From a virus (lineage: Duplodnaviria > Heunggongvirae > Uroviricota > Caudoviricetes): 64,000 nucleotides of DNA. This document shows, one piece after another, positions 1 through 63,062 of this stretch. The notes under the pieces are model-generated. The model ran no database searches, had not been told where the DNA came from, and was given only the letters and a program-made list of their open reading frames with translations. The stretch lies in the IMG/VR virus record IMGVR_UViG_2778261224_000007; one strand, given 5' to 3'. Made by a program: the position numbers and the translations under genes. Position 1 is the stretch's first letter, and the number at the start of each line of letters is the position of its first letter.

Positions 1-65
1 TGCCAACAGCTAATGAAAACCGTCCTCGTAATATTGCCTTTAATTATATCGTAAGGGCGGCATAA
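1..65 (+). other. 3' end of a promoterless tail-fibre C-terminal cassette (cassette A, cut by window start)
   Basis: Frame ending at TAA 63-65 encodes ...NETRPRNIAFNYIVRAA, the same C-terminal motif as the expressed tail fibre on the minus strand. Confidence 0.6.
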
Positions 66-84
66 AAACGTTGGTTTAGGGGAA
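59..84. promoter_or_regulatory. hix/cix-like crossover site at 5' end of cassette B (GGCATAAAAACG-TT-GGTTTAGGGGAA)
   Basis: 26-bp site with AAAC..GGTTT core; right half matches the inverted site inside the tail-fibre gene (2079-2104) at 11/12. Confidence 0.4.
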
Positions 85-504
85 GGCTCGGCGCTGCCCG
101 TTGGTGTACCTGTTCCATGGCCCTCCGCCACACCACCAACGGGGTGGCTGAAATGTAACGGAGCAGCATTTTCTTCTGAAAAGTACCCAAATCTGGCAAA
201 GGTTTACCCCACTAATAAATTGCCGGATCTACGGGGCGAATTTATTCGAGGTTGGGATGATGGACGAGGTGTGGACAATGGGCGAGCATTATTAAGCAGC
301 CAAGAGGCTACAAACTTTTCTCAGCGTGCCGGAAATATAGGCGATGGTGCAGGGCACGCAATTAATTTTCATGATGGCATCGTCGGAAATCAGCCAGGAT
401 TTTCACGATTTAATTTCACCAGTAACTCTGTAGGTGATGGTATAAATTTTGTTGCTGTCAGGCCGCGAAATATCGCATTTAATTACATCGTAAGGGCGGC
501 ATAA
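73..504 (+). other. promoterless tail-fibre C-terminal cassette B
   Basis: Frame open from 55 to TAA 502-504, no ATG before 220; encodes GLGEGSALPVGVPVPWP...LPDLRGEFIRGWDDGRGVD...RPRNIAFNYIVRAA, homologous to the C-terminus of the expressed fibre. Confidence 0.6.
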
Positions 505-523
505 AAACGTTGGTTTAGGGGAA
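498..523. promoter_or_regulatory. hix/cix-like crossover site at 5' end of cassette C
   Basis: Identical 26-bp sequence to the site at 59-84. Confidence 0.4.
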
Positions 524-1012
524 GGCTCGGCGCTGCCCGTTGGTGTACCTATTCCATGGCCCTCAGCCACACCGCCAACGGGGTGGCTGAAATGCAATGG
601 TGCAGCATTTTCTTCTGAAAAGTACCCAAATCTGGCAAAGGTTTACCCAACGTTAAAATTACCTGATTTACGCGGTGAGTTTATCCGTGGCTGGGATGAT
701 GGGCGAGGGATTGACTCTGGTCGCTCTATTTTAAGCGAGCAAGGATATGCAACGGAGGATCATGCTCACGGATTACCGTCAAAATCAACCGTAGCAACTG
801 ACCGCTCAATTAATTTCTACTTTGACGAGGCATGGGCTACTAGTGGTAATACGGGAGTTATCAGATGGGGGAACACAAGCGATGCAGGATTGCCAGCCCC
901 TAATTATGGAACTTTTAAAACATATAAACAGTCCGTAGCTAATTTAGGTACTGCTGGCTTAGAAACCCGCCCTCGTAATATTGCATTTAATTATATTGTG
1001 AGGGCGGATTAA
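512..1012 (+). other. promoterless tail-fibre C-terminal cassette C
   Basis: Open frame to TAA 1010-1012; shares the N-terminal junction (GEGSALPVGVP, LPDLRGEFIRGWDDGRG) and C-terminal RPRNIAFNYIVRA motifs with a different central segment. Confidence 0.6.
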
Positions 1013-1017
1013 TTATA

Positions 1018-1629
1018 TCAACTGGCTGTAGAAAGTTGTTTTTCAGGCCAGTTGAGATCTGGTGCCGTGGTTAAATCCATCGCGTTCAGCTCGTCTATAT
1101 AATCTAGCACGGAGTTAAGCTGCGTGGTTTCTGCCTGCGTCAACTTCCGTCCAGCCCGTAATTTCAACTGAATCAGACTAATGGAATCCATCGCAGTATC
1201 AATCAATGACTGACGTTTTGTTTCTGCTGCCTCTACAGCTGCACTATGTTGAGCCTCAGTATCAACCACCCATTTCTCTCCATCCCATTTGTCGTATGGT
1301 GTTAGCGGGGCGATAGTGGTTGTATTTTCCGGATAGTCACCCAACACCGTGATTTCTTCGGGATTCCCAGTGTCAATGCTATAGACAGTTTCGCCACGAT
1401 GATCTGGCACATACTCCCATGAACTTAAATCCTCTGAACGGAGAATCGCATAACCTGCTTTATGTGAGCCTGGAGCATCCAAACAAGAATTTGCCGGAAT
1501 ACCAACGCCAACAGCAAGATATTCAGTTGATGCAGAAATATATTCCCGATTACCACCATCATAGTTATAAACGATAATGTTTCCTGCCTGTATGGCTATA
1601 AGTTCGCTATTTAATATCGCATTATCCAT
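1018..1629 (-). CDS. tail fibre assembly protein (U/Tfa-like chaperone)
   Basis: 203-aa ORF directly downstream of the tail-fibre gene with overlapping stop/start (ATGA); size and position typical of tail fibre assembly proteins. Confidence 0.7.
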   Translation of the reverse strand: MDNAILNSELIAIQAGNIIVYNYDGGNREYISASTEYLAVGVGIPANSCLDAPGSHKAGYAILRSEDLSSWEYVPDHRGETVYSIDTGNPEEITVLGDYPENTTTIAPLTPYDKWDGEKWVVDTEAQHSAAVEAAETKRQSLIDTAMDSISLIQLKLRAGRKLTQAETTQLNSVLDYIDELNAMDLTTAPDLNWPEKQLSTAS

Positions 1630-3608
1630 TATGCTGCTCTCACAATATAATTGAAGGCAATGTTACGTGGGCGGGTTTCATTCCCCCCAGATAACTCCGT
1701 TCTGTATTGACTGGTAAATTTACCATTAATCGCTCCTTGCCGGACGGCGTTATCTGTCGACAACAGACTATCCCCCCCTCTGTCATTTGGCACCAATACC
1801 GTGTTATCCCACGCGTCCCATGACCGAATATTATGATAATGACTTCCTGTTAACCACCCCTGTATGCTTAAGATGACCCTTCCCGCATCCACACCTCGCC
1901 CATCATCCCAACCACGGATAAACTCACCGCGTAAATCCGGTAATTTATTGGTGGGGTAGGCCTTTGCCAGTTTGGGATACATTTCAGAAGAAAATGCTGC
2001 ACCATTGCATTTTAGCCAGCCCGTTGGTGGTGTTTCTAAGGGCCACGGAACGGGCACACCAACAGGCAGTGCAGAGCCTTCCCCCAAACCAAGGTAATCA
2101 AGAACGCTCTGAATACTGGTCTTACCAAGAATGGCGCGTCCAACACTTGTCAATGCAGTTAACGCGGCACGATCAACACCTGTGAAATAAGGGAGTTTAT
2201 CTGCTGCTGTAGCTAGTGCCGCTAGAGCAGTGAGCGTAGCGTCTGCCGCTTGCTTTCCATTAGCCAAATCATATGCAGCCTTGACAGCTTTCGGTGTGGC
2301 GGCCAGCACTTCAGACGTGCTGTTAGTGGCACTACTGAGCTGAGTGATGCCTTTCGCTGTCAATGAAGCTGTTGGCACACCAGTGATCTGATTCCAGGGA
2401 TGTGTATGACTGGATGGTGCCTTTCCGGCTGCTAGATCGTATGCAGCTTTAACCGCTTTTGGAGTTGCAGCTAATGTTTCAGAAGTGCTGTTGGTGTCGC
2501 TACTGAGCTGAACTATCCCTTTTTGTGTCGTGGTTGCATCCTGGGCTGTATACTTCCCGTTAGCCAGGTCATATGCAGCCTTGACAGCTTTCGGTGTGGC
2601 GGCCAGCACTTCAGACGTGCTGTTAGTGGCACTACTGAGCTGAGTGATGCCTTTCGCTGTCAATGAAGCTGTTGGCACACCAGTGATCTGATTCCAGGGA
2701 TGTGTATGACTGGATGGTGCCTTTCCGGCTGCTAGATCGTATGCAGCTTTAACCGCTTTTGGAGTTGCAGCTAATGTTTCAGAAGTGCTGTTGGTGTCGC
2801 TACTGAGCTGAACTATCCCTTTTTGTGTCGTGGTTGCATCCTGGGCTGTATACTTCCCGTTAGCCAGGTCATATGCAGCCTTGACAGCTTTCGGTGTGGC
2901 GGCCAGCACTTCGGACGTACTGTTAGTGGCACTACTGAGCTGAACTAATCCCTTTTGCGTTGTGCTTGCATCCTGCGCCGTATATTTGCTTTTCGCCAGA
3001 TCGTAGGCTTTTTTAACTGCCAGCGAACTCGCAGCAACATCACTTCTGGTACTGGTTACAGAGTCTGAAATATCAATGCCGATCGTGCGGTTGATACGCT
3101 CGGATGTATCAATCATCTCTTGAGTAATGGTAGATACGCCAGCAGGGATATTCACCGTACAAACCAGCAGTTCCCCATCACCTAACTGATATGAATCGGT
3201 ATAGGTTCTGGCAACAAATTCAGCTGCATGAATATGTGACGCGGTATTCACCTGATAGGTATCTTCTCCAAGAAGGTATCTTCCCTTCAGCACAATTGCA
3301 TATTTCTTGCCTGCGTTAAGTGCAAGAGAGATATCCTTACGATGCTGAATAGTTACCTGGTAGAATTCACCAATATCCACTGACGCCGCGCCAGCGGTTT
3401 TATCTCCATCCACTGAGGTGATTAACAGGTTCATTCCACCGCCAGGCTTAGGCAAGAAACCAGCATAAAATCCCGGGTCAACAATTCCCCTGAATTTTCG
3501 GTTTAGAGCGGCTGACAGATATGGTTCGTGGTATTGCACATCAGCCACCAGAGCCAACGACTCGGGTGATGGGTAAGTAACCGATGTAACAACTGTAACG
3601 TCATTCAT
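1629..3608 (-). CDS. tail fibre protein (P1 S-like) with internal collagen/fibre repeats
   Basis: Repeated SSxTNSTSE(V/T)LAATPKAVKAAYDLA units; C-terminus RPRNIAFNYIVRAA; likely start is ATG at 3608 (MNDVTVV, RBS AAGGA) rather than the upstream codon at 3695. Confidence 0.85.
   Translation of the reverse strand: MNDVTVVTSVTYPSPESLALVADVQYHEPYLSAALNRKFRGIVDPGFYAGFLPKPGGGMNLLITSVDGDKTAGAASVDIGEFYQVTIQHRKDISLALNAGKKYAIVLKGRYLLGEDTYQVNTASHIHAAEFVARTYTDSYQLGDGELLVCTVNIPAGVSTITQEMIDTSERINRTIGIDISDSVTSTRSDVAASSLAVKKAYDLAKSKYTAQDASTTQKGLVQLSSATNSTSEVLAATPKAVKAAYDLANGKYTAQDATTTQKGIVQLSSDTNSTSETLAATPKAVKAAYDLAAGKAPSSHTHPWNQITGVPTASLTAKGITQLSSATNSTSEVLAATPKAVKAAYDLANGKYTAQDATTTQKGIVQLSSDTNSTSETLAATPKAVKAAYDLAAGKAPSSHTHPWNQITGVPTASLTAKGITQLSSATNSTSEVLAATPKAVKAAYDLANGKQAADATLTALAALATAADKLPYFTGVDRAALTALTSVGRAILGKTSIQSVLDYLGLGEGSALPVGVPVPWPLETPPTGWLKCNGAAFSSEMYPKLAKAYPTNKLPDLRGEFIRGWDDGRGVDAGRVILSIQGWLTGSHYHNIRSWDAWDNTVLVPNDRGGDSLLSTDNAVRQGAINGKFTSQYRTELSGGNETRPRNIAFNYIVRAA
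2079..2104. promoter_or_regulatory. hix/cix-like crossover site inside the tail-fibre gene (TTCCCCCAAACC-AA-GGTAATCAAGAA)
   Basis: Inverted relative to cassette sites; lies at the constant/variable boundary (codons for YLGLGEG); outer half resembles the Hin/Gin/Cin half-site TTCTTGAAAACC. Confidence 0.45.
2269..2945. repeat. perfect 300-bp tandem duplication (2 full copies plus a diverged partial third) inside the tail-fibre gene
   Basis: Sequence 2281-2580 is identical base-for-base to 2581-2880; 2881-2940 has 2 mismatches then diverges. Confidence 0.9.
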
Positions 3609-3619
3609 CAAGCATATCC

Positions 3620-4054
3620 TTATGCTGTAGTCGAGTTTATGGCCATAACTGCGGTATATGTTTTGCCCACATACAGCGAGTCTTCTTGGACACAAATAAT
3701 GGCGATTGGCTTATTCTCGTTATCCAGAACAACCAGAGTGTTGAATGGGTAGTTTTTCCCTTCCTGCAACTGACTTTGATCAAGGTCCATTCGGACAGTA
3801 ATTATCCCGCCTGAGTAGGTTGGGACGAGGTTGATGGTGCAAAATTGACTGGTCAGTTCTGCCAGATCGAAAGCCTTTGGCAGTTCTCCAATCTCATAAG
3901 TGCCATCTCCTTTCTTAGTAACCAGTGAACTGGTACCGAAAACGGCCTTGCTGATTAAAAATCGAGAGCCTTTGTTAATGGACGATTCAGCGCGCCGCTG
4001 ATAGTAATAGTCCAACAACTGACTCTTATAGAGGTTTGTTGAGACGTCAGACAT
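3620..4054 (-). CDS. tail/baseplate-associated protein (P1 R-like by position)
   Basis: 144-aa ORF immediately upstream of the tail-fibre gene in the same operon. Confidence 0.5.
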   Translation of the reverse strand: MSDVSTNLYKSQLLDYYYQRRAESSINKGSRFLISKAVFGTSSLVTKKGDGTYEIGELPKAFDLAELTSQFCTINLVPTYSGGIITVRMDLDQSQLQEGKNYPFNTLVVLDNENKPIAIICVQEDSLYVGKTYTAVMAINSTTA

Positions 4055-4132
4055 GATTTTCCCTAATCAATGTTGTGAAGCCTCATTGTAAGATAAGTAA
4101 CTTGTCACCCCGCCCTGCGGACGGGGTGATTG

Positions 4133-4972
4133 TCACGCATCGCTATCCAACAGCAAATCATCTGCGCGGGTGCGATCAAACGTAGGCGTTGCTTTCACAA
4201 TAGTGCCGCCCGGCGTTGCAGTGATCGGGGCGTTAATCGACGTAACTTCAGTAAGCGAAGTTGTATCCGAAGTTTCAAACCAGCAGAATGCTTTTTCGGT
4301 ATCAGAAATCTCATTCAAAGTGATCATGTCGGCCTGTTCATTTACAACAACCGACAAATAGAGCGTAAGCCCATCAAACACTATATGCAGTGGCAGTAGA
4401 GGCTTTACGAACTGATTAAACTTTCTGAGAATTTCTTCTGTAATTGCGGACTGATCTATCGTTCCAGTAATACCCATTGTCCGGGCCAAGTCGTTTATGG
4501 GAATACTGATCATTCCTCTGGAAGTCAGAAACATCTCGCCGAATGTGCCGCCGGTGGTTTCCAGTGTGCTTTCTGGAATCAGGACCGTGCCATAGGGATG
4601 ACGTTCAAAGTCCACCGGAGCATATATGGGATCCCATAAAACCGATATACCGTTAAATTCGCGATAAATTGTCTGGTTTATAGGGCGTTCAGTACCCTTA
4701 AAATGGATCTCATCAAACCGCTGTTGTAACAACATCGGAACGGAAGATGAATTCGACGTTCTGATAGTAAAAAACTGGCCAAGTTCATTTGTCCTAGTCT
4801 CCAGATCCTCCTTGCTCATGGAGAAAATAGACTTCCGGTTGGTAATTCGCTCCAACCATGGGTCAACAAAGGTGTCCATCATTGACTGAACCAAATCAGC
4901 CAATGATTTATAAAGTAATGACTTTTGCTTAGCTGATGTAAGCCGGTTATTAAACCAGGAACGCTGCATCAC
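4133..4972 (-). CDS. baseplate/tail protein (P1 gene 16-like by position)
   Basis: 279-aa ORF, translationally coupled to the upstream gene. Confidence 0.5.
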   Translation of the reverse strand: MMQRSWFNNRLTSAKQKSLLYKSLADLVQSMMDTFVDPWLERITNRKSIFSMSKEDLETRTNELGQFFTIRTSNSSSVPMLLQQRFDEIHFKGTERPINQTIYREFNGISVLWDPIYAPVDFERHPYGTVLIPESTLETTGGTFGEMFLTSRGMISIPINDLARTMGITGTIDQSAITEEILRKFNQFVKPLLPLHIVFDGLTLYLSVVVNEQADMITLNEISDTEKAFCWFETSDTTSLTEVTSINAPITATPGGTIVKATPTFDRTRADDLLLDSDA

Positions 4973-11124: not shown

Positions 11125-11736
11125 TCAAAGAGAAAAGCTAAAGCCCAGAAGGGAAGCCAAAGAACTTGAGGATTGGTTAAACGTGCTGTGCAATGCGAAG
11201 GTCATTGGGAATGACTTAAATTCCGTAACCTGATCCCGCGCATAGGTGACATCGCCGGTAGTGACAGGGAATACAGTCATCTCATTTTCCAGTTTGGTTA
11301 AACCGGAGGACAGCAACCGATAAATACGCACATTGAGCAAATATTTAGATGGTATGTTCCCGGTGCCGTCAGGATTGATCACCCGACTTTTTGCCGTCTT
11401 AAACCAGTCCAAAACGAGGCCATCAACGGTATCCCTAACCATCATTGTTATCTGCCCTGGCGAACGCTCCGTTGGTTGAAGGATATTCCCTCCGCCGATT
11501 TTAATCGTTTCATATTCGATGCTGTAATCGTGGTAGGTAATATCTTTGGCAAAGAAGTCTGCCCCCTCCAGTCCATCAACTTCGACAGAGAACTGCCATC
11601 CTTGCGCGAACAGCATTTTGTTCATGATGATTGACGTCAGCTTACCAACTTCCCGCTCACCAACGCCGGAGCCAAATAATGTCGTCGTTAATGCCGAAGA
11701 TACATAAGACTTTACTGAAGCAACATTAAACCCCAT
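11125..11736 (-). CDS. putative tail tube protein (P1 Tub-like by position)
   Basis: 203-aa ORF in the tail operon. Confidence 0.4.
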   Translation of the reverse strand: MGFNVASVKSYVSSALTTTLFGSGVGEREVGKLTSIIMNKMLFAQGWQFSVEVDGLEGADFFAKDITYHDYSIEYETIKIGGGNILQPTERSPGQITMMVRDTVDGLVLDWFKTAKSRVINPDGTGNIPSKYLLNVRIYRLLSSGLTKLENEMTVFPVTTGDVTYARDQVTEFKSFPMTFALHSTFNQSSSSLASLLGFSFSL

Positions 11737-14021: not shown

Positions 14022-14199
14022 GTATTTTTAAGTCGCGAATGCTATCTTTTCGCATCATATTGACCTTTTAATCGTTCAGGCTTATAGTTCCGCCGTCGTA
14101 GCAAATTCTGCGACCGGGTTTGACAGCCTGAATGTTAGTGCGGACAACCGCTGATTTCCGATATTGCGGTATTTTTGTGTCCGTAAACCGCGTTACGCC

Positions 14200-14300
14200 C
14201 GAATTATGGTGGGGCGTGATGGGGAGGCTTCGGCCTGCTGGTTTCACTAACGCCAGTCTGTCAACCCTGTCACGTCCTGCCACCTGTTTGACAGCGGGTA
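14200..14300 (+). ncRNA. candidate c4-like antisense RNA / target region upstream of icd (boundaries approximate)
   Basis: Non-coding, GC-rich, UUCG-loop hairpin 14225-14236, internally complementary 7-mers CTGTCAA (14258-14264) and TTGACAG (14288-14294); position matches P1 c4. Confidence 0.35.
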
Positions 14301-14556: not shown

Positions 14557-15938
14557 AAAAACCTCTCGTCACCCGTAATGAAATTGCCGAAGCGATCGCT
14601 TTGCATACAACCTGTATGCCGACACGGGAGATCCCCGGCGCAATTGCCAACTATTTCATGATAACCAGACGTTTTTATACCCGAACAGATAAGGCGGTGA
14701 TCAACAGGCTACTGATAGCCGAGATCAGGGATTATTTGATTGAACAAGGACGTCTACGTTACGCAACAGTGGCAGCAGAAATGAGAAAGGAGGCACATAG
14801 AATGACCAGTAATAATTTGAATGTTAAAAAACCAGCATCTGTTGCTTCAGCTACGCCATCACCAGCTGTGAATGTCATCCCCACCACCGGAGACACAATC
14901 GACAGCCTGACACTGTTAAAGATGGTCAATGAAGCGCGTAAGTTATGTGGGGAACCAGAGGTTCGGAACAACAAATTCATCGAAAAAATACTCGATGAGC
15001 TTGATGGTGAGCACTACACAAAAAGTGTAGTGGAAAAAATGAACAGAACATCAATGCTTGTCATAACCATGACCTACAAACAAGCCCTGCGAGTTGCCGC
15101 ACGCGAATCAAAAGCGGTCCGCCGTTCGCTACATACCATGATTCAGTCATTGGAACCTATAAATGTAGAAAATCAGCCTGATGAAATTCCCGTTCTGGAA
15201 TGGCAGGGAGTACGCGTCGTGACAACCGAGACTCTTGCTAGAGGGTATGGCACTACACCTATTCGTATTCAGCAGAACTACAATCGCAATGAAGAACGAT
15301 TTGTAGAGGGTAAACACTTCTTTAAAATCAAAGGAGATGAGATAAAAAGTTTGCGACTATCTTTTAGCGAGTTGCAAATTTCCCCCAAGACCAGATCCTT
15401 AATACTCTGGACCGAACGCGGAGCGGCACGCATGTCTAAGATCGTAGACACAGAGCAAGCGTGGGCATTCTTTGAAAAACTGGAAGACAGCTACTTCCGG
15501 CAAAAAGAACAGCAACCGGTCACAATCCCCCAAACATTACCAGAAGCTCTACGCCTGGCTGCCGAGTTGGCAGAGCAGAAAATGCAGTTGGAACAACAGC
15601 TGGTGGCCGCAGCCCCTAAAGTCGAGTTTGCCGACCGGGTATCAGTGGCCAATGGAATCCTGATCGGGAACTTTGCAAAGGTCGTTGGACTTAAGCAAAA
15701 CGCCCTTTTCTCATGGTTGCGCCAGAACGGCATTCTCATGGCTTTTGGTGCGCGCAAAAACGTACCGCGCCAGCAGTACATTAACGCCGGGTATTTCACG
15801 GTGAAAGAAGTGGTGCTGGATGATGAAAATGGCTATCAGATACGGCTGACGCCCCAATTAACGGGTAAAGGCCAACAGTGGTTAACTCGCAAGCTACTTG
15901 ATGCTGGTTTGTTAAAACCAGTGGCGTCCTTGTCTTAA
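14553..15938 (+). CDS. ant: antirepressor Ant with C-terminal KilA-C type domain
   Basis: 461 aa; C-terminal region homologous to the KilA C-terminal domain (LPEALRLAAELAEQK...GKGQQWL). Confidence 0.75.
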   Translation: MKKPLVTRNEIAEAIALHTTCMPTREIPGAIANYFMITRRFYTRTDKAVINRLLIAEIRDYLIEQGRLRYATVAAEMRKEAHRMTSNNLNVKKPASVASATPSPAVNVIPTTGDTIDSLTLLKMVNEARKLCGEPEVRNNKFIEKILDELDGEHYTKSVVEKMNRTSMLVITMTYKQALRVAARESKAVRRSLHTMIQSLEPINVENQPDEIPVLEWQGVRVVTTETLARGYGTTPIRIQQNYNRNEERFVEGKHFFKIKGDEIKSLRLSFSELQISPKTRSLILWTERGAARMSKIVDTEQAWAFFEKLEDSYFRQKEQQPVTIPQTLPEALRLAAELAEQKMQLEQQLVAAAPKVEFADRVSVANGILIGNFAKVVGLKQNALFSWLRQNGILMAFGARKNVPRQQYINAGYFTVKEVVLDDENGYQIRLTPQLTGKGQQWLTRKLLDAGLLKPVASLS

Positions 15939-16114
15939 CGTATTCAGACCAGGATTTGCCATAAATTACAGGCATGTGTACGATATGCCCAACCCTGTTT
16001 TTCAGGGGAGGCGCAACGTTATGCGGGGGTTATGAACTCCTGGATGCGTAGCCTCCAGACAGAAAAAACCCTCGCTACAACGTTGCATGGAGGCAACCAG
16101 CGAGGGCATTCCTT

Positions 16115-16177
16115 ATGTCTGAACAACAAGAGGATAGCCGCAAGCAGTTGCTGTTGCAAGTATGCGGAGCTTCGTAA
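16115..16177 (+). CDS. possible 20-aa leader ORF
   Basis: GAGGG RBS 8 nt upstream; stop overlaps start of next small ORF (TAATG). Confidence 0.15.
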   Translation: MSEQQEDSRKQLLLQVCGAS

Positions 16178-16293
16178 TGACTCTTCAAAAAGCTTGCAAG
16201 TGGATTGTGACCAACATCATTGTTCCTGTCATCATCGGAGCTTCAAGTTCTGTGTTGGCATCAGTGATTGCCTCACTTCTCCACATTGCATAA
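16177..16293 (+). CDS. possible 38-aa hydrophobic peptide (MTLQKACKWIVTNIIVPVIIGASSSVLASVIASLLHIA)
   Basis: GGAG RBS 7 nt upstream; single predicted TM helix; followed by strong terminator. Confidence 0.2.
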   Translation: MTLQKACKWIVTNIIVPVIIGASSSVLASVIASLLHIA

Positions 16294-16347
16294 CAACATT
16301 GAAGGGCGTTAGTTCGCAGTGTAACAGCAGCGCGTTGCGCCCGAACA

Positions 16348-16382
16348 GGCCACAGGGTAAAACCTGTGGCCTTTTTCGTTTT
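16348..16382 (+). terminator. intrinsic terminator (9-bp GC-rich stem GGCCACAGG/CCTGTGGCC followed by a T-run)
   Basis: Perfect hairpin plus TTTTTCGTTTT. Confidence 0.7.
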
Positions 16383-16491
16383 ATCCAGCCACAAATCCAC
16401 ATTGAAAAACGCCTTATACAAAAAAACCTGCCAGCAAACTGGCAGGTTTCTGAGCAGATCGACCAACCCGATCTGGATCGAGTCAGAAAAA

Positions 16492-16508
16492 TTTGCTCTA
16501 ATAAATTT
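16492..16508 (+). promoter_or_regulatory. C1 operator-like site (TTTGCTCTAATAAATTT) upstream of kilA
   Basis: 16/17 match to consensus. Confidence 0.7.
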
Positions 16509-62763: not shown

Positions 62764-62959
62764 TGTTTTTTGACTGCCGATGTTACATTGAACCTGACCT
62801 CTTGCGCCTTGAGGCATTTTCGGTTTATGCTTATCAGGCACCTCATTAAAACGGGTGCCGGGATTGAGACCCCGGATAATGTCAAAGGCGACACAGACGC
62901 CGAAAGCGTCTTTTTTTGTGTCATGCCATCGCACAGCCATACGTAGCGTTTAGCTCCGA

Positions 62960-63062
62960 AATCAATGGTAGTGCTGGCTGGGCTGCCGAAAGGCAGGCCG
63001 GTTCCCTTTGACGCCGGTAGTCTCAACCCAGTCAGTGCTACCGCCATTGAGATTGAGACCTC
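62960..63062 (+). ncRNA. candidate second c4-like antisense RNA / target region (boundaries approximate)
   Basis: GAAA-loop hairpin 62983-62996; complementary 7-mers GTCTCAA (63020-63026) and TTGAGAC (63053-63059), paralleling the first module with compensatory changes. Confidence 0.3.

Follow-up and report, generated by a model that had tools for sequence, protein, structure and literature searches.

Among the described systems closest to the locus analysed here is Min of plasmid p15B from E. coli 15T-, which was reportedly described by Sandmeier, Iida, Arber and colleagues in 1990-1992 and is said to have six crossover sites, with 240 isomers published. Phage P1, whose C segment is inverted by Cin, has two sites and two states, and its segment is built from two convergent pairs, each a Mu-like fibre end of about 520 codons with a chaperone gene of its own (U or U'). 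The P segment of e14, served by Pin, is two-state as well and has two chaperones, TfaE and TfaP. The R64 shufflon (Rci) and the Rin shufflon of bifidobacterial prophages use tyrosine recombinases and short asymmetric repeats. In both, multiple inversions shuffle several alternative 3' cassettes onto a constant gene (PMC6109161).

Here we analysed a window of 64,000 nucleotides, bases 1-64000 of contig NLUW01000019.1, in which base 1 of the window is also the contig end. We conclude that the region described below is very probably part of a serine-invertase shufflon carried by a P1-like phage-plasmid, and that it forms the tail-fibre end of a multiple-inversion system of the p15B Min type; the system is an already known one, of the Min type of E. 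coli P1-like phage-plasmids. An earlier, sequence-only reading of this DNA had likewise preferred Min of p15B to the two-state C segment of P1, and the P1-like backbone, the cassettes of plasmid pMCR_SCKP-LL83 and the invertase of a sibling contig all bear this out. The authors of pMCR_SCKP-LL83 give the identity of its array to the p15B min region as 99%, at 92% coverage (PMC5786510), and our link to p15B runs via this plasmid and the annotation of P1, not via the p15B sequence (X62121).

Results

The backbone of the window is P1-like, with the late promoter LPs followed by R, S, gp16-like, baseplate and Sit-like genes. LPs itself (4085-4103, minus strand), comprising a -22 box plus a -10 element, is identical to that of P1 and lies upstream of R-S-U, which would be transcribed from it as a minus-strand operon. 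The first fibre-operon gene is the P1 R homologue (3620-4054, minus strand; R in the P1/P7 annotation; PF26881, Phage_P1_tail_fiber_R), and it precedes the constant part of the tail-fibre gene S, Sc (2093-3608, minus strand; Pfam Phage_fiber_2, E = 8e-109), in which Phage_fiber_2 repeat units of 300 bp stand in tandem at 2253-2852. Both Sc and R share 97% DNA identity with their P1 and P7 counterparts. The variable part that S expresses (type B; 153 aa on translation) occupies 1629-2090 on the minus strand, and the tail-fibre assembly chaperone gene U (1018-1629, minus strand; 203 aa, TfaE-like) lies beyond it in the position of P1 gene U, with its ATG overlapping the S stop codon (TAATG). Scanning for P1 late-promoter boxes showed that LPs is the sole late promoter serving the region, boxes being found otherwise only at LPdar. 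Within 1-4200, sigma-70-like promoter matches and terminator-like matches were no more numerous than shuffles would lead one to expect.

The plus strand carries silent cassettes, of which the sequence-only reading had counted at least three. Two are complete: cassette 1 (73-504, plus strand; type D, 143 aa), with a Collar domain (Pfam Collar, E = 8.9e-15), a variable centre and RPRNIAFNYIVRAA before its stop codon, and cassette 2 (512-1012, plus strand; type E, 166 aa), which is convergent with the chaperone gene and ends in RAD and a stop codon. The third, cassette 0, is just a 63-nt 3' tail (1-63, plus strand) encoding PTANENRPRNIAFNYIVRAA and a stop codon, and its own site is not visible because the cassette is cut by the start of the window and contig. 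Its C-terminal peptide is the same as the end of the invertase-proximal cassette in the sibling contig L004, described below. The conserved terminus that had been ascribed to the cassettes in general was found in cassette 1, but cassette 2, which adjoins the chaperone gene, terminates in RPRNIAFNYIVRAD rather than in RAA and has no site after its end; the nearest relative of this type E cassette is e14 StfE (the variable part of stfE). In all, the window shows at least four variable parts, and a tblastn search found no further cassette or chaperone gene, and no invertase, in the 64 kb.

We scanned the 64-kb window with the site pattern TTCCCCNAAACCAASGT, tolerating up to two mismatches, and obtained three matches, at 68-84 and 507-523 on the minus strand and at 2079-2095 on the plus strand, against a chance expectation of 0.05; none of 100 shuffles gave three. 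The sites are 26 bp long and of 12-2-12 form, with two 12-bp half-sites around a 2-bp core that is TT in all three, and they agree with the consensus quoted in PMC4134206. Site a (59-84) consists of GGCATAAAAACG, the TT core and GGTTTAGGGGAA, and site b (498-523) is identical to it; both lie on the plus strand and are inverted relative to the third site (2079-2104, minus strand; TTCTTGATTACC, TT at 2091-2092, and GGTTTGGGGGAA), which falls inside S at the constant/variable boundary. This S-internal site had been described as an inverted copy of the others. Its core does match, and its cassette-side half is alike at 11 of 12 bases, but its outer half matches at only 5 of 12, so it is their inverted partner and not an exact inverted copy. 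With more than two sites the invertible segments overlap, three sites being present in the window and a fourth being implied by the truncated cassette 0.

At each site the TT core stands immediately 5' of a GGT codon, and the cassettes read to the conserved terminus in that frame; because the core always directly precedes this codon, the silent cassettes can all be fused in frame to Sc. Translated in the S frame from the cassette-side half-site, the silent cassettes are open throughout (143 and 166 aa), so the out-of-frame arrangement that would have counted against the earlier reading was not found, and cassettes 1 and 2 and the expressed variable part all start with GLGEGSALPVGVP. The end of cassette 0, comprising its last codons and stop, overlaps the outer half of site a, and the inner half of this site encodes the G-L-G-E of cassette 1.

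In the mechanism we propose, S consists of Sc plus one of a set of exchangeable 3' cassettes, each about 145-170 codons long and attached at the 26-bp site, and a Pin/Min-like serine invertase would cut two inverted sites at their TT cores and flip the DNA between them. Each silent cassette opens with the same half-site encoding G-L-G-E, and most close with a half-site that overlaps their last codons and stop. A single-cassette segment would be bounded by a cassette-start half-site on one side and by a cassette-end half-site on the other, and one 'double-headed' segment, with cassette-start half-sites at both ends, would carry cassette B and then U facing the convergent cassette E. The number of isomers with n single cassettes would be n! 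x (n+1) x 2, and when this rule is applied to six sites, our own combinatorial derivation arrives at 4! x 5 x 2 = 240.

The cassettes match the tip of T4 gp37 (2XGF, E = 6e-16), including its C-terminal NIAFNYIVR, and also the short tail fibre 9CUY (E = 4e-18). They are miniature forms of the gp37 fibre tip, in which the collar would form from the conserved Collar domain together with the conserved C-terminal RPRNIAFNYIVRAA, and in which the variable centre would serve as the tip that binds the receptor, with a presumed receptor specificity of its own, so that inversion would change host range. When types were separated at 85% identity in the variable centre, the loci examined yielded 51 of these cassette types, all having one collar scaffold in common.

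A serine invertase gene was not found by tblastn in the 64-kb window. The source contig ends at base 1 of the window, and for that reason the gene would be out of sight. The sibling contig L004 encodes an identical S protein (659 aa) and has six sites and five silent cassettes, with a gene for a Pin-like serine invertase (Resolvase+HTH_7) located 54 bp past the last site, and this layout recurs in NZ_CP012491.1, NZ_CP122494.1, NZ_CP103469.1 and CP088846.1. The sibling invertase (190 aa) is 82% identical to e14 PinE and 74% identical to P1 Cin. Between positions 19-90 of the L004 gene and the enhancer annotated in P1 cin the identity is 80.6%, compared with 66% for the rest of the gene, and sequence comparison revealed one conserved Fis-consensus match. 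Beside the invertase gene of L004 lies a truncated cin remnant (psi-cin), in a position that fits the coordinates of p15B as listed in the P1 annotation. From synteny, we infer that the invertase of this plasmid would be encoded at the opposite end of the contig, which is circular.

A window that lacks an invertase would also be expected of a frozen relic, a once invertible array whose enzyme has been lost or inactivated in this plasmid, leaving the silent cassettes as dead DNA or as nothing more than a store of sequence for homologous recombination. In some P1-like plasmids, both invertase genes and arrays are reported in truncated or altered form (PMC6906374), and one relative has a partial tfa pseudogene. 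Against this, the two silent cassettes have intact ORFs and perfect sites, and the sibling with the identical S protein has an intact invertase, which is repeated as exactly the same protein across several plasmids. In addition, the contig breaks exactly inside the array, as would be expected of reads with conflicting arrangements or repeats, although repeats alone could do so too. We therefore consider a relic unlikely, and infer that the inversion system is probably active in this strain.

Comparison with pMCR_SCKP-LL83 bears directly on inversion. The three complete cassettes of the window are 100% identical at the protein level to cassettes of that plasmid. A block containing cassette E, U and cassette B (463-2095) aligns with it on the same strand at 99.9% DNA identity, and Sc (2736-4100) aligns on the opposite strand. 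Cassette D, which is silent in the window, is expressed in pMCR_SCKP-LL83 because it is fused to Sc there, and cassette B, the expressed one in the window, is silent there and lies on the invertase side. Judged by this alignment, pMCR_SCKP-LL83 is an inversion isomer of the window.

Such an exchange might instead be produced by RecA-dependent homologous recombination between inverted collar-coding repeats of about 230 bp, without site-specific inversion. Inverted repeats of 230 nt are indeed present, but their identity of 81-82% makes them a poor substrate for homologous recombination. Moreover, the inverted-block alignment stops at 2095, at most 3 nt from the TT core, sites with an identical core are placed exactly at every cassette boundary, and a dedicated serine invertase adjoins the array in every complete related array. 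We regard the RecA-dependent route as highly improbable, and site-specific inversion remains our preferred reading.

We additionally carried out a census of 34 loci, each with a single U and with an invertase of at least 90% identity. On the Sc side the sites were all in one orientation and on the invertase side all in the other, with no violations of this rule, which is the one expected for site-specific inversion. The number of sites per side varied; complete arrays in the census had from two to nine, the siblings six to nine and relatives as a whole two to nine or more. In different loci, the same cassette types were found on both sides of U. U was in the sense orientation in 18 loci and antisense in the remaining 16. 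Between-strain comparison thus indicates that inversion isomers occur, and isomers, whose absence would have counted against the sequence-only reading, are found among relatives such as pMCR_SCKP-LL83 and the census loci.

That reading had also pointed out that there is one chaperone gene and that it would flip with its segment, which agrees with U being the sole chaperone gene in the window and with both of its orientations being represented in the census. U matches Pfam Caudo_TAP (E = 3e-30); its identity to e14 TfaE is 78%, and no similarity to either U or U' of P1 was detectable. A sequence search of the PDB with the chaperone gave no match. The Tfa N-domain co-varies with the C-terminal motif of the fibre and not with the variable centre, and since the fibre C-terminus is shared, this suggests that one TfaE-type chaperone could fit all cassettes. 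Cassette E can never sit upstream of U.

The P1 late-promoter box scan found no late promoter able to drive U in its flipped orientation. For a single flipping U that serves all cassettes, we have four readings of the flipped isomers, which even jointly are tentative. The small gp37-like tips might fold without a chaperone; the tfa genes of resident prophages might supply one in trans; the chaperone might be expressed from an unrecognised promoter; or about half of the induced cells might make fibre-defective particles, a built-in cost of the shufflon. The cin promoters are kept in the truncated cin remnant, pointing through the invertase gene into the array, and are a candidate for the third reading.

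Discussion

The region is a phage host-range switch of textbook type that is common in sequenced plasmids, with matches in more than 500 plasmid records. Assemblies break or mis-join in such arrays, which is why the contig ends at this point, and annotation pipelines give the silent cassettes the label 'phage tail protein', when they are in fact gene ends with neither a promoter nor a start. As a natural library, the catalogue of cassettes offers small receptor-binding tips that can be interchanged and that apparently use one type of chaperone, and it is relevant to the engineering of P1-based delivery vectors. Phage vB_EcoM-673R5 was uninformative as a characterised comparator, its record being broken up by frameshifts.

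Set beside the P1 Cin system and its C segment, and beside Gin and the G segment of Mu, the locus is alike in its genome position and LPs-R-S-U operon, and in its chemistry, with a putative serine invertase, 12-2-12 sites and in-frame exchange of the fibre C-terminus. It differs in having at least three sites and one chaperone, and in carrying Collar cassettes arranged in tandem without chaperone genes, unlike the paired ends of the C segment. Transcription of P1 cin runs towards the segment, and that of the sibling's min-like gene runs away from the array. A two-state C segment is ruled out because there are more than two sites.

The resemblance to e14 is one of parts. PinE is the closest named invertase (82%) and TfaE the closest named chaperone (78%), and stfE contains a Collar cassette of the cassette E type, ending in RPRNIAFNYIVRAA. 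The alternative end of the two-state e14 segment, StfP, is not a Collar cassette.

With the R64 shufflon and Rin, the locus shares the shuffling of 3' cassettes onto a constant gene by multiple inversions, but it has 26-bp quasi-palindromic sites and would be served by a recombinase of the serine invertase family. A tyrosine-recombinase shufflon, such as Rci acting on 19-bp sfx repeats, is ruled out by sites of the hix/cix type and by the serine Resolvase-family protein that siblings carry.

Taken together, these comparisons place the locus with Min of p15B. The two have in common a P1-like backbone, a constant 5' fibre part with internal repeats and alternative 3' parts at 26-bp sites, as well as one TfaE-like gene within the invertible DNA and, in siblings of the window, a Pin-like invertase with a truncated cin remnant alongside; the segment rule also yields the same 240 isomers at six sites. 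Between them we found no difference in kind, the variation being confined to the number and order of cassettes and to how many copies of the 300-bp repeat Sc contains.

Layout of the array at the contig end

The plus strand of the window begins with the last 63 nt of a tail-fibre cassette (1-63, read from the sequence; cassette 0), followed by two complete cassettes identified by translation, D (73-504, 143 aa) and E (512-1012, 166 aa). The minus strand carries the tail-fibre assembly gene U (1018-1629, 203 aa) and the expressed tail-fibre gene S (1629-3608, 659 aa), which ends in cassette B. The sequence-only reading had described at least three tandem silent cassettes sharing a start site and a conserved terminus; two are complete as described, the third is a cut tail with no visible site, and the cassette adjacent to the chaperone gene terminates in RAD with no site after it. 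Beyond S lie P1 R, gp16 and baseplate homologues and a Sit-like transglycosylase, and the remainder is P1-like, reaching the pac/c1 end of the P1 map. P1 immunity C4 antisense RNA is present in two copies, one at 14082-14287 with its own a1/b1 target and one at 62838-63048; this second copy adjoins an isrK-like sRNA, which suggests a second immI-like module near the window end. Three tRNA genes (Asn-GTT, Thr-TGT and Met-CAT; 36771-38431) are of a kind known from P1/P7-like plasmids (PMC5786510).

The S protein is encoded by two public contigs, NLUW01000019.1 and the sibling JAJOGC010000015.1. Base 1 of NLUW01000019.1 (92,412 bp, GCA_002232855.1) coincides with base 1 of the window and the two are identical from there on, so window base 1 is a contig end within the cassette array, where a break is expected from repeats, from mixed inversion isomers among the reads, or from both. 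A search of the 64-kb window recovered no invertase, second chaperone gene or further cassette; judging by synteny, the missing 28 kb should finish with lydB, lydA, lydC, the invertase and more cassettes. In addition, the constant part of S (Sc) contains two near-identical 300-bp tandem Phage_fiber_2 units (2253-2852, minus strand), and S proteins among relatives measure 559, 659, 759 or 859 aa, steps of exactly 100 aa that imply repeat copy-number variation altering fibre length.

Crossover sites and cassette structure

Three 26-bp hix/cix-type sites occur at 59-84 and 498-523 (plus strand) and, inside S, at 2079-2104 (minus strand); over the 64 kb scanned, a 17-nt site pattern matched three times against 0.05 expected. 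Each site comprises an outer half (12 nt), a TT core and an inner half (12 nt). The inner half, GGTTT(A/G)GGGGAA, encodes G-L-G-E, the opening residues of all cassettes, and the outer half is of two types, one consisting of the preceding cassette's final codons and stop (GGCATAAAAACG) and the other, within S, of the end of the constant part (TTCTTGATTACC). Because the core lies directly 5' of a GGT codon at all sites, exchange at the core preserves the reading frame, and the silent cassettes translate without interruption from that codon in the frame of S. The sequence-only observation of the cassette region is thereby confirmed, apart from the two small corrections given above. The S-internal site differs by one silent base (GGTTTG vs GGTTTA) from its counterpart at 11505-11530 of the sibling contig, the two contigs encoding identical S proteins. 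This could be a plain SNP or localised conversion at the crossover site, a process known for Cin (cited in PMC4134206).

Each cassette opens with a conserved N-terminal portion of ~72 aa containing the Pfam Collar domain, continues with a variable centre of roughly 55-80 aa and closes with a conserved C-terminus (RPRNIAFNYIVRAA). The expressed cassette matched the T4 gp37 tip (2XGF; E = 6e-16) at the collar and the C-terminal NIAFNYIVR, and the short tail fibre 9CUY along its full length (E = 4e-18). In the gp37 tip the chain runs out of the collar, makes up the distal, receptor-binding region and then re-enters the collar; by analogy with this path, the conserved cassette ends would form a shared scaffold and the variable centre the receptor-binding tip. 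Several variable centres contain H-x-H motifs resembling the metal-binding motifs of the gp37 needle.

Complete relatives and the invertase

The array of the sibling contig is complete, running Sc, cassette B, U, with five silent cassettes and six sites in total. A gene for a 190-aa Resolvase+HTH_7 protein starts 54 bp past the last site and reads outwards from the array. The layout recurs, with 5 to 9 sites, in complete E. coli plasmids, and the region has matches among 550 plasmid records and 1,695 of the 5,426 complete E. coli genomes; the weaker matches are to prophage relatives. A further plasmid locus (NZ_CP135665.1 82899-95909) holds at least 16 cassettes, with protein accessions repeated in both orientations (WP_001376655.1, for example, three times); either the array has truly expanded or a long-read assembly has strung different isomers together.

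The sibling's invertase shares 82% identity with PinE of e14, a prophage whose stfE encodes a cassette of the array's type, and 74% with P1 Cin. Just past the 3' end of its gene, and convergent with it, lies a truncated 5' end of cin (the first 177 nt; sibling contig 15782-15958), adjoined by the P1 cin promoter region (~15959-16056) within an 83% P1 match spanning 15782-16500. Transcripts from the remnant cin promoters would cross the invertase gene in antisense and continue into the silent cassettes.

Evidence for inversion

Comparison with the plasmid pMCR_SCKP-LL83, whose invertase is identical to the sibling's, revealed an inversion isomer of the window. Positions 463-2095, spanning cassettes E and B with U between them, align at 99.9% identity without a change of strand, the match to Sc (2736-4100) switches to the other strand, and the boundary of the inverted block falls no more than 3 nt from the core. 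Cassette D, silent in the window, is joined to Sc in the plasmid, and cassette B, expressed in the window, is silent there.

If inversion is site-specific, cassette orientations should obey a strict rule. Single cassettes have half-sites of different types at their two ends, cassette-start and cassette-end; the double-headed B-U/E segment has cassette-start half-sites at both, and the two fixed flanks present end-type half-sites. Given these half-site types, every cassette on the Sc side of U has to be oriented away from Sc, and every cassette on the invertase side the opposite way; cassette order, how many cassettes lie on each side and which way the double-headed segment faces would be free. 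The 34 loci that have a single U and an invertase of at least 90% identity show no violation of this rule. Counts per side vary, identical cassette types occur on both sides among different loci, and U runs in the direction of S in 18 loci and against it in 16. Isomers under the rule would number n! x (n+1) x 2, or 240 for six sites; abstracts on p15B reportedly give 240. This evidence for site-specific inversion consists of comparisons between strains.

One chaperone gene, possibly for all fibre ends

The earlier claim of one chaperone gene for the array, flipping with its own segment, proved correct. U is 78% identical to TfaE of e14; no similarity to P1 U or U' was detected. A comparison of the 38 distinct U homologues present in 50 cassette-U pairs contrasted five loci (L015, L034, L075, L076 and L078) with the others. 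Homologues whose N-domain is 73-100% identical to that of the window U are preceded by cassettes with many unrelated variable centres, all ending in N(Y/F)IVR followed by two small residues, and a 205-aa variant, 59-60% identical in both domains, follows a cassette ending in NYIVRAT. Cassettes ending in NFLVRAK, one of which has the variable centre of cassette D, precede a chaperone with an N-domain 39-40% and a C-domain 71-75% identical. The N-domain thus co-varies with the final residues of the fibre protein (NYIVRAA-type vs NFLVRAK), independently of the variable centre. This pattern fits the Mu Tfa model, reportedly from North et al. in 2019, in which chaperones of this type bind the C-terminus of the fibre through their variable N-domain, and suggests that one chaperone can serve all cassettes of this array.

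LPs, upstream of R, is the only late promoter for the region, and a scan of the array turned up no conspicuous promoter or terminator signal. With the segment co-oriented with S, U could be reached by read-through past any intervening cassettes; one plasmid has U as far as five cassettes downstream of Sc. With the segment flipped, U would be antisense to the fibre operon, and in neither orientation could cassette E precede U. In half of the isomers, then, U may be expressed by some other route or be dispensable.

Relationship to the p15B Min system

All three complete window cassettes show 100% protein identity to cassettes of pMCR_SCKP-LL83, whose 5-kb array reportedly shares 99% identity with the p15B min region at 92% coverage (PMC5786510). 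According to the p15B coordinates given in the GenBank annotation of P1, p15B has the same cin remnant at the same position, and the invertase of another P1-like plasmid is reported to be 98.5% identical to Min (PMC6906374). The link to p15B is indirect, running through pMCR_SCKP-LL83 and the P1 annotation. The region is a genuine p15B-type Min shufflon on a P1-like phage-plasmid, as the sequence-only reading had recognised; the Min-type system has already been described, and neither its kind nor its sequence is new.
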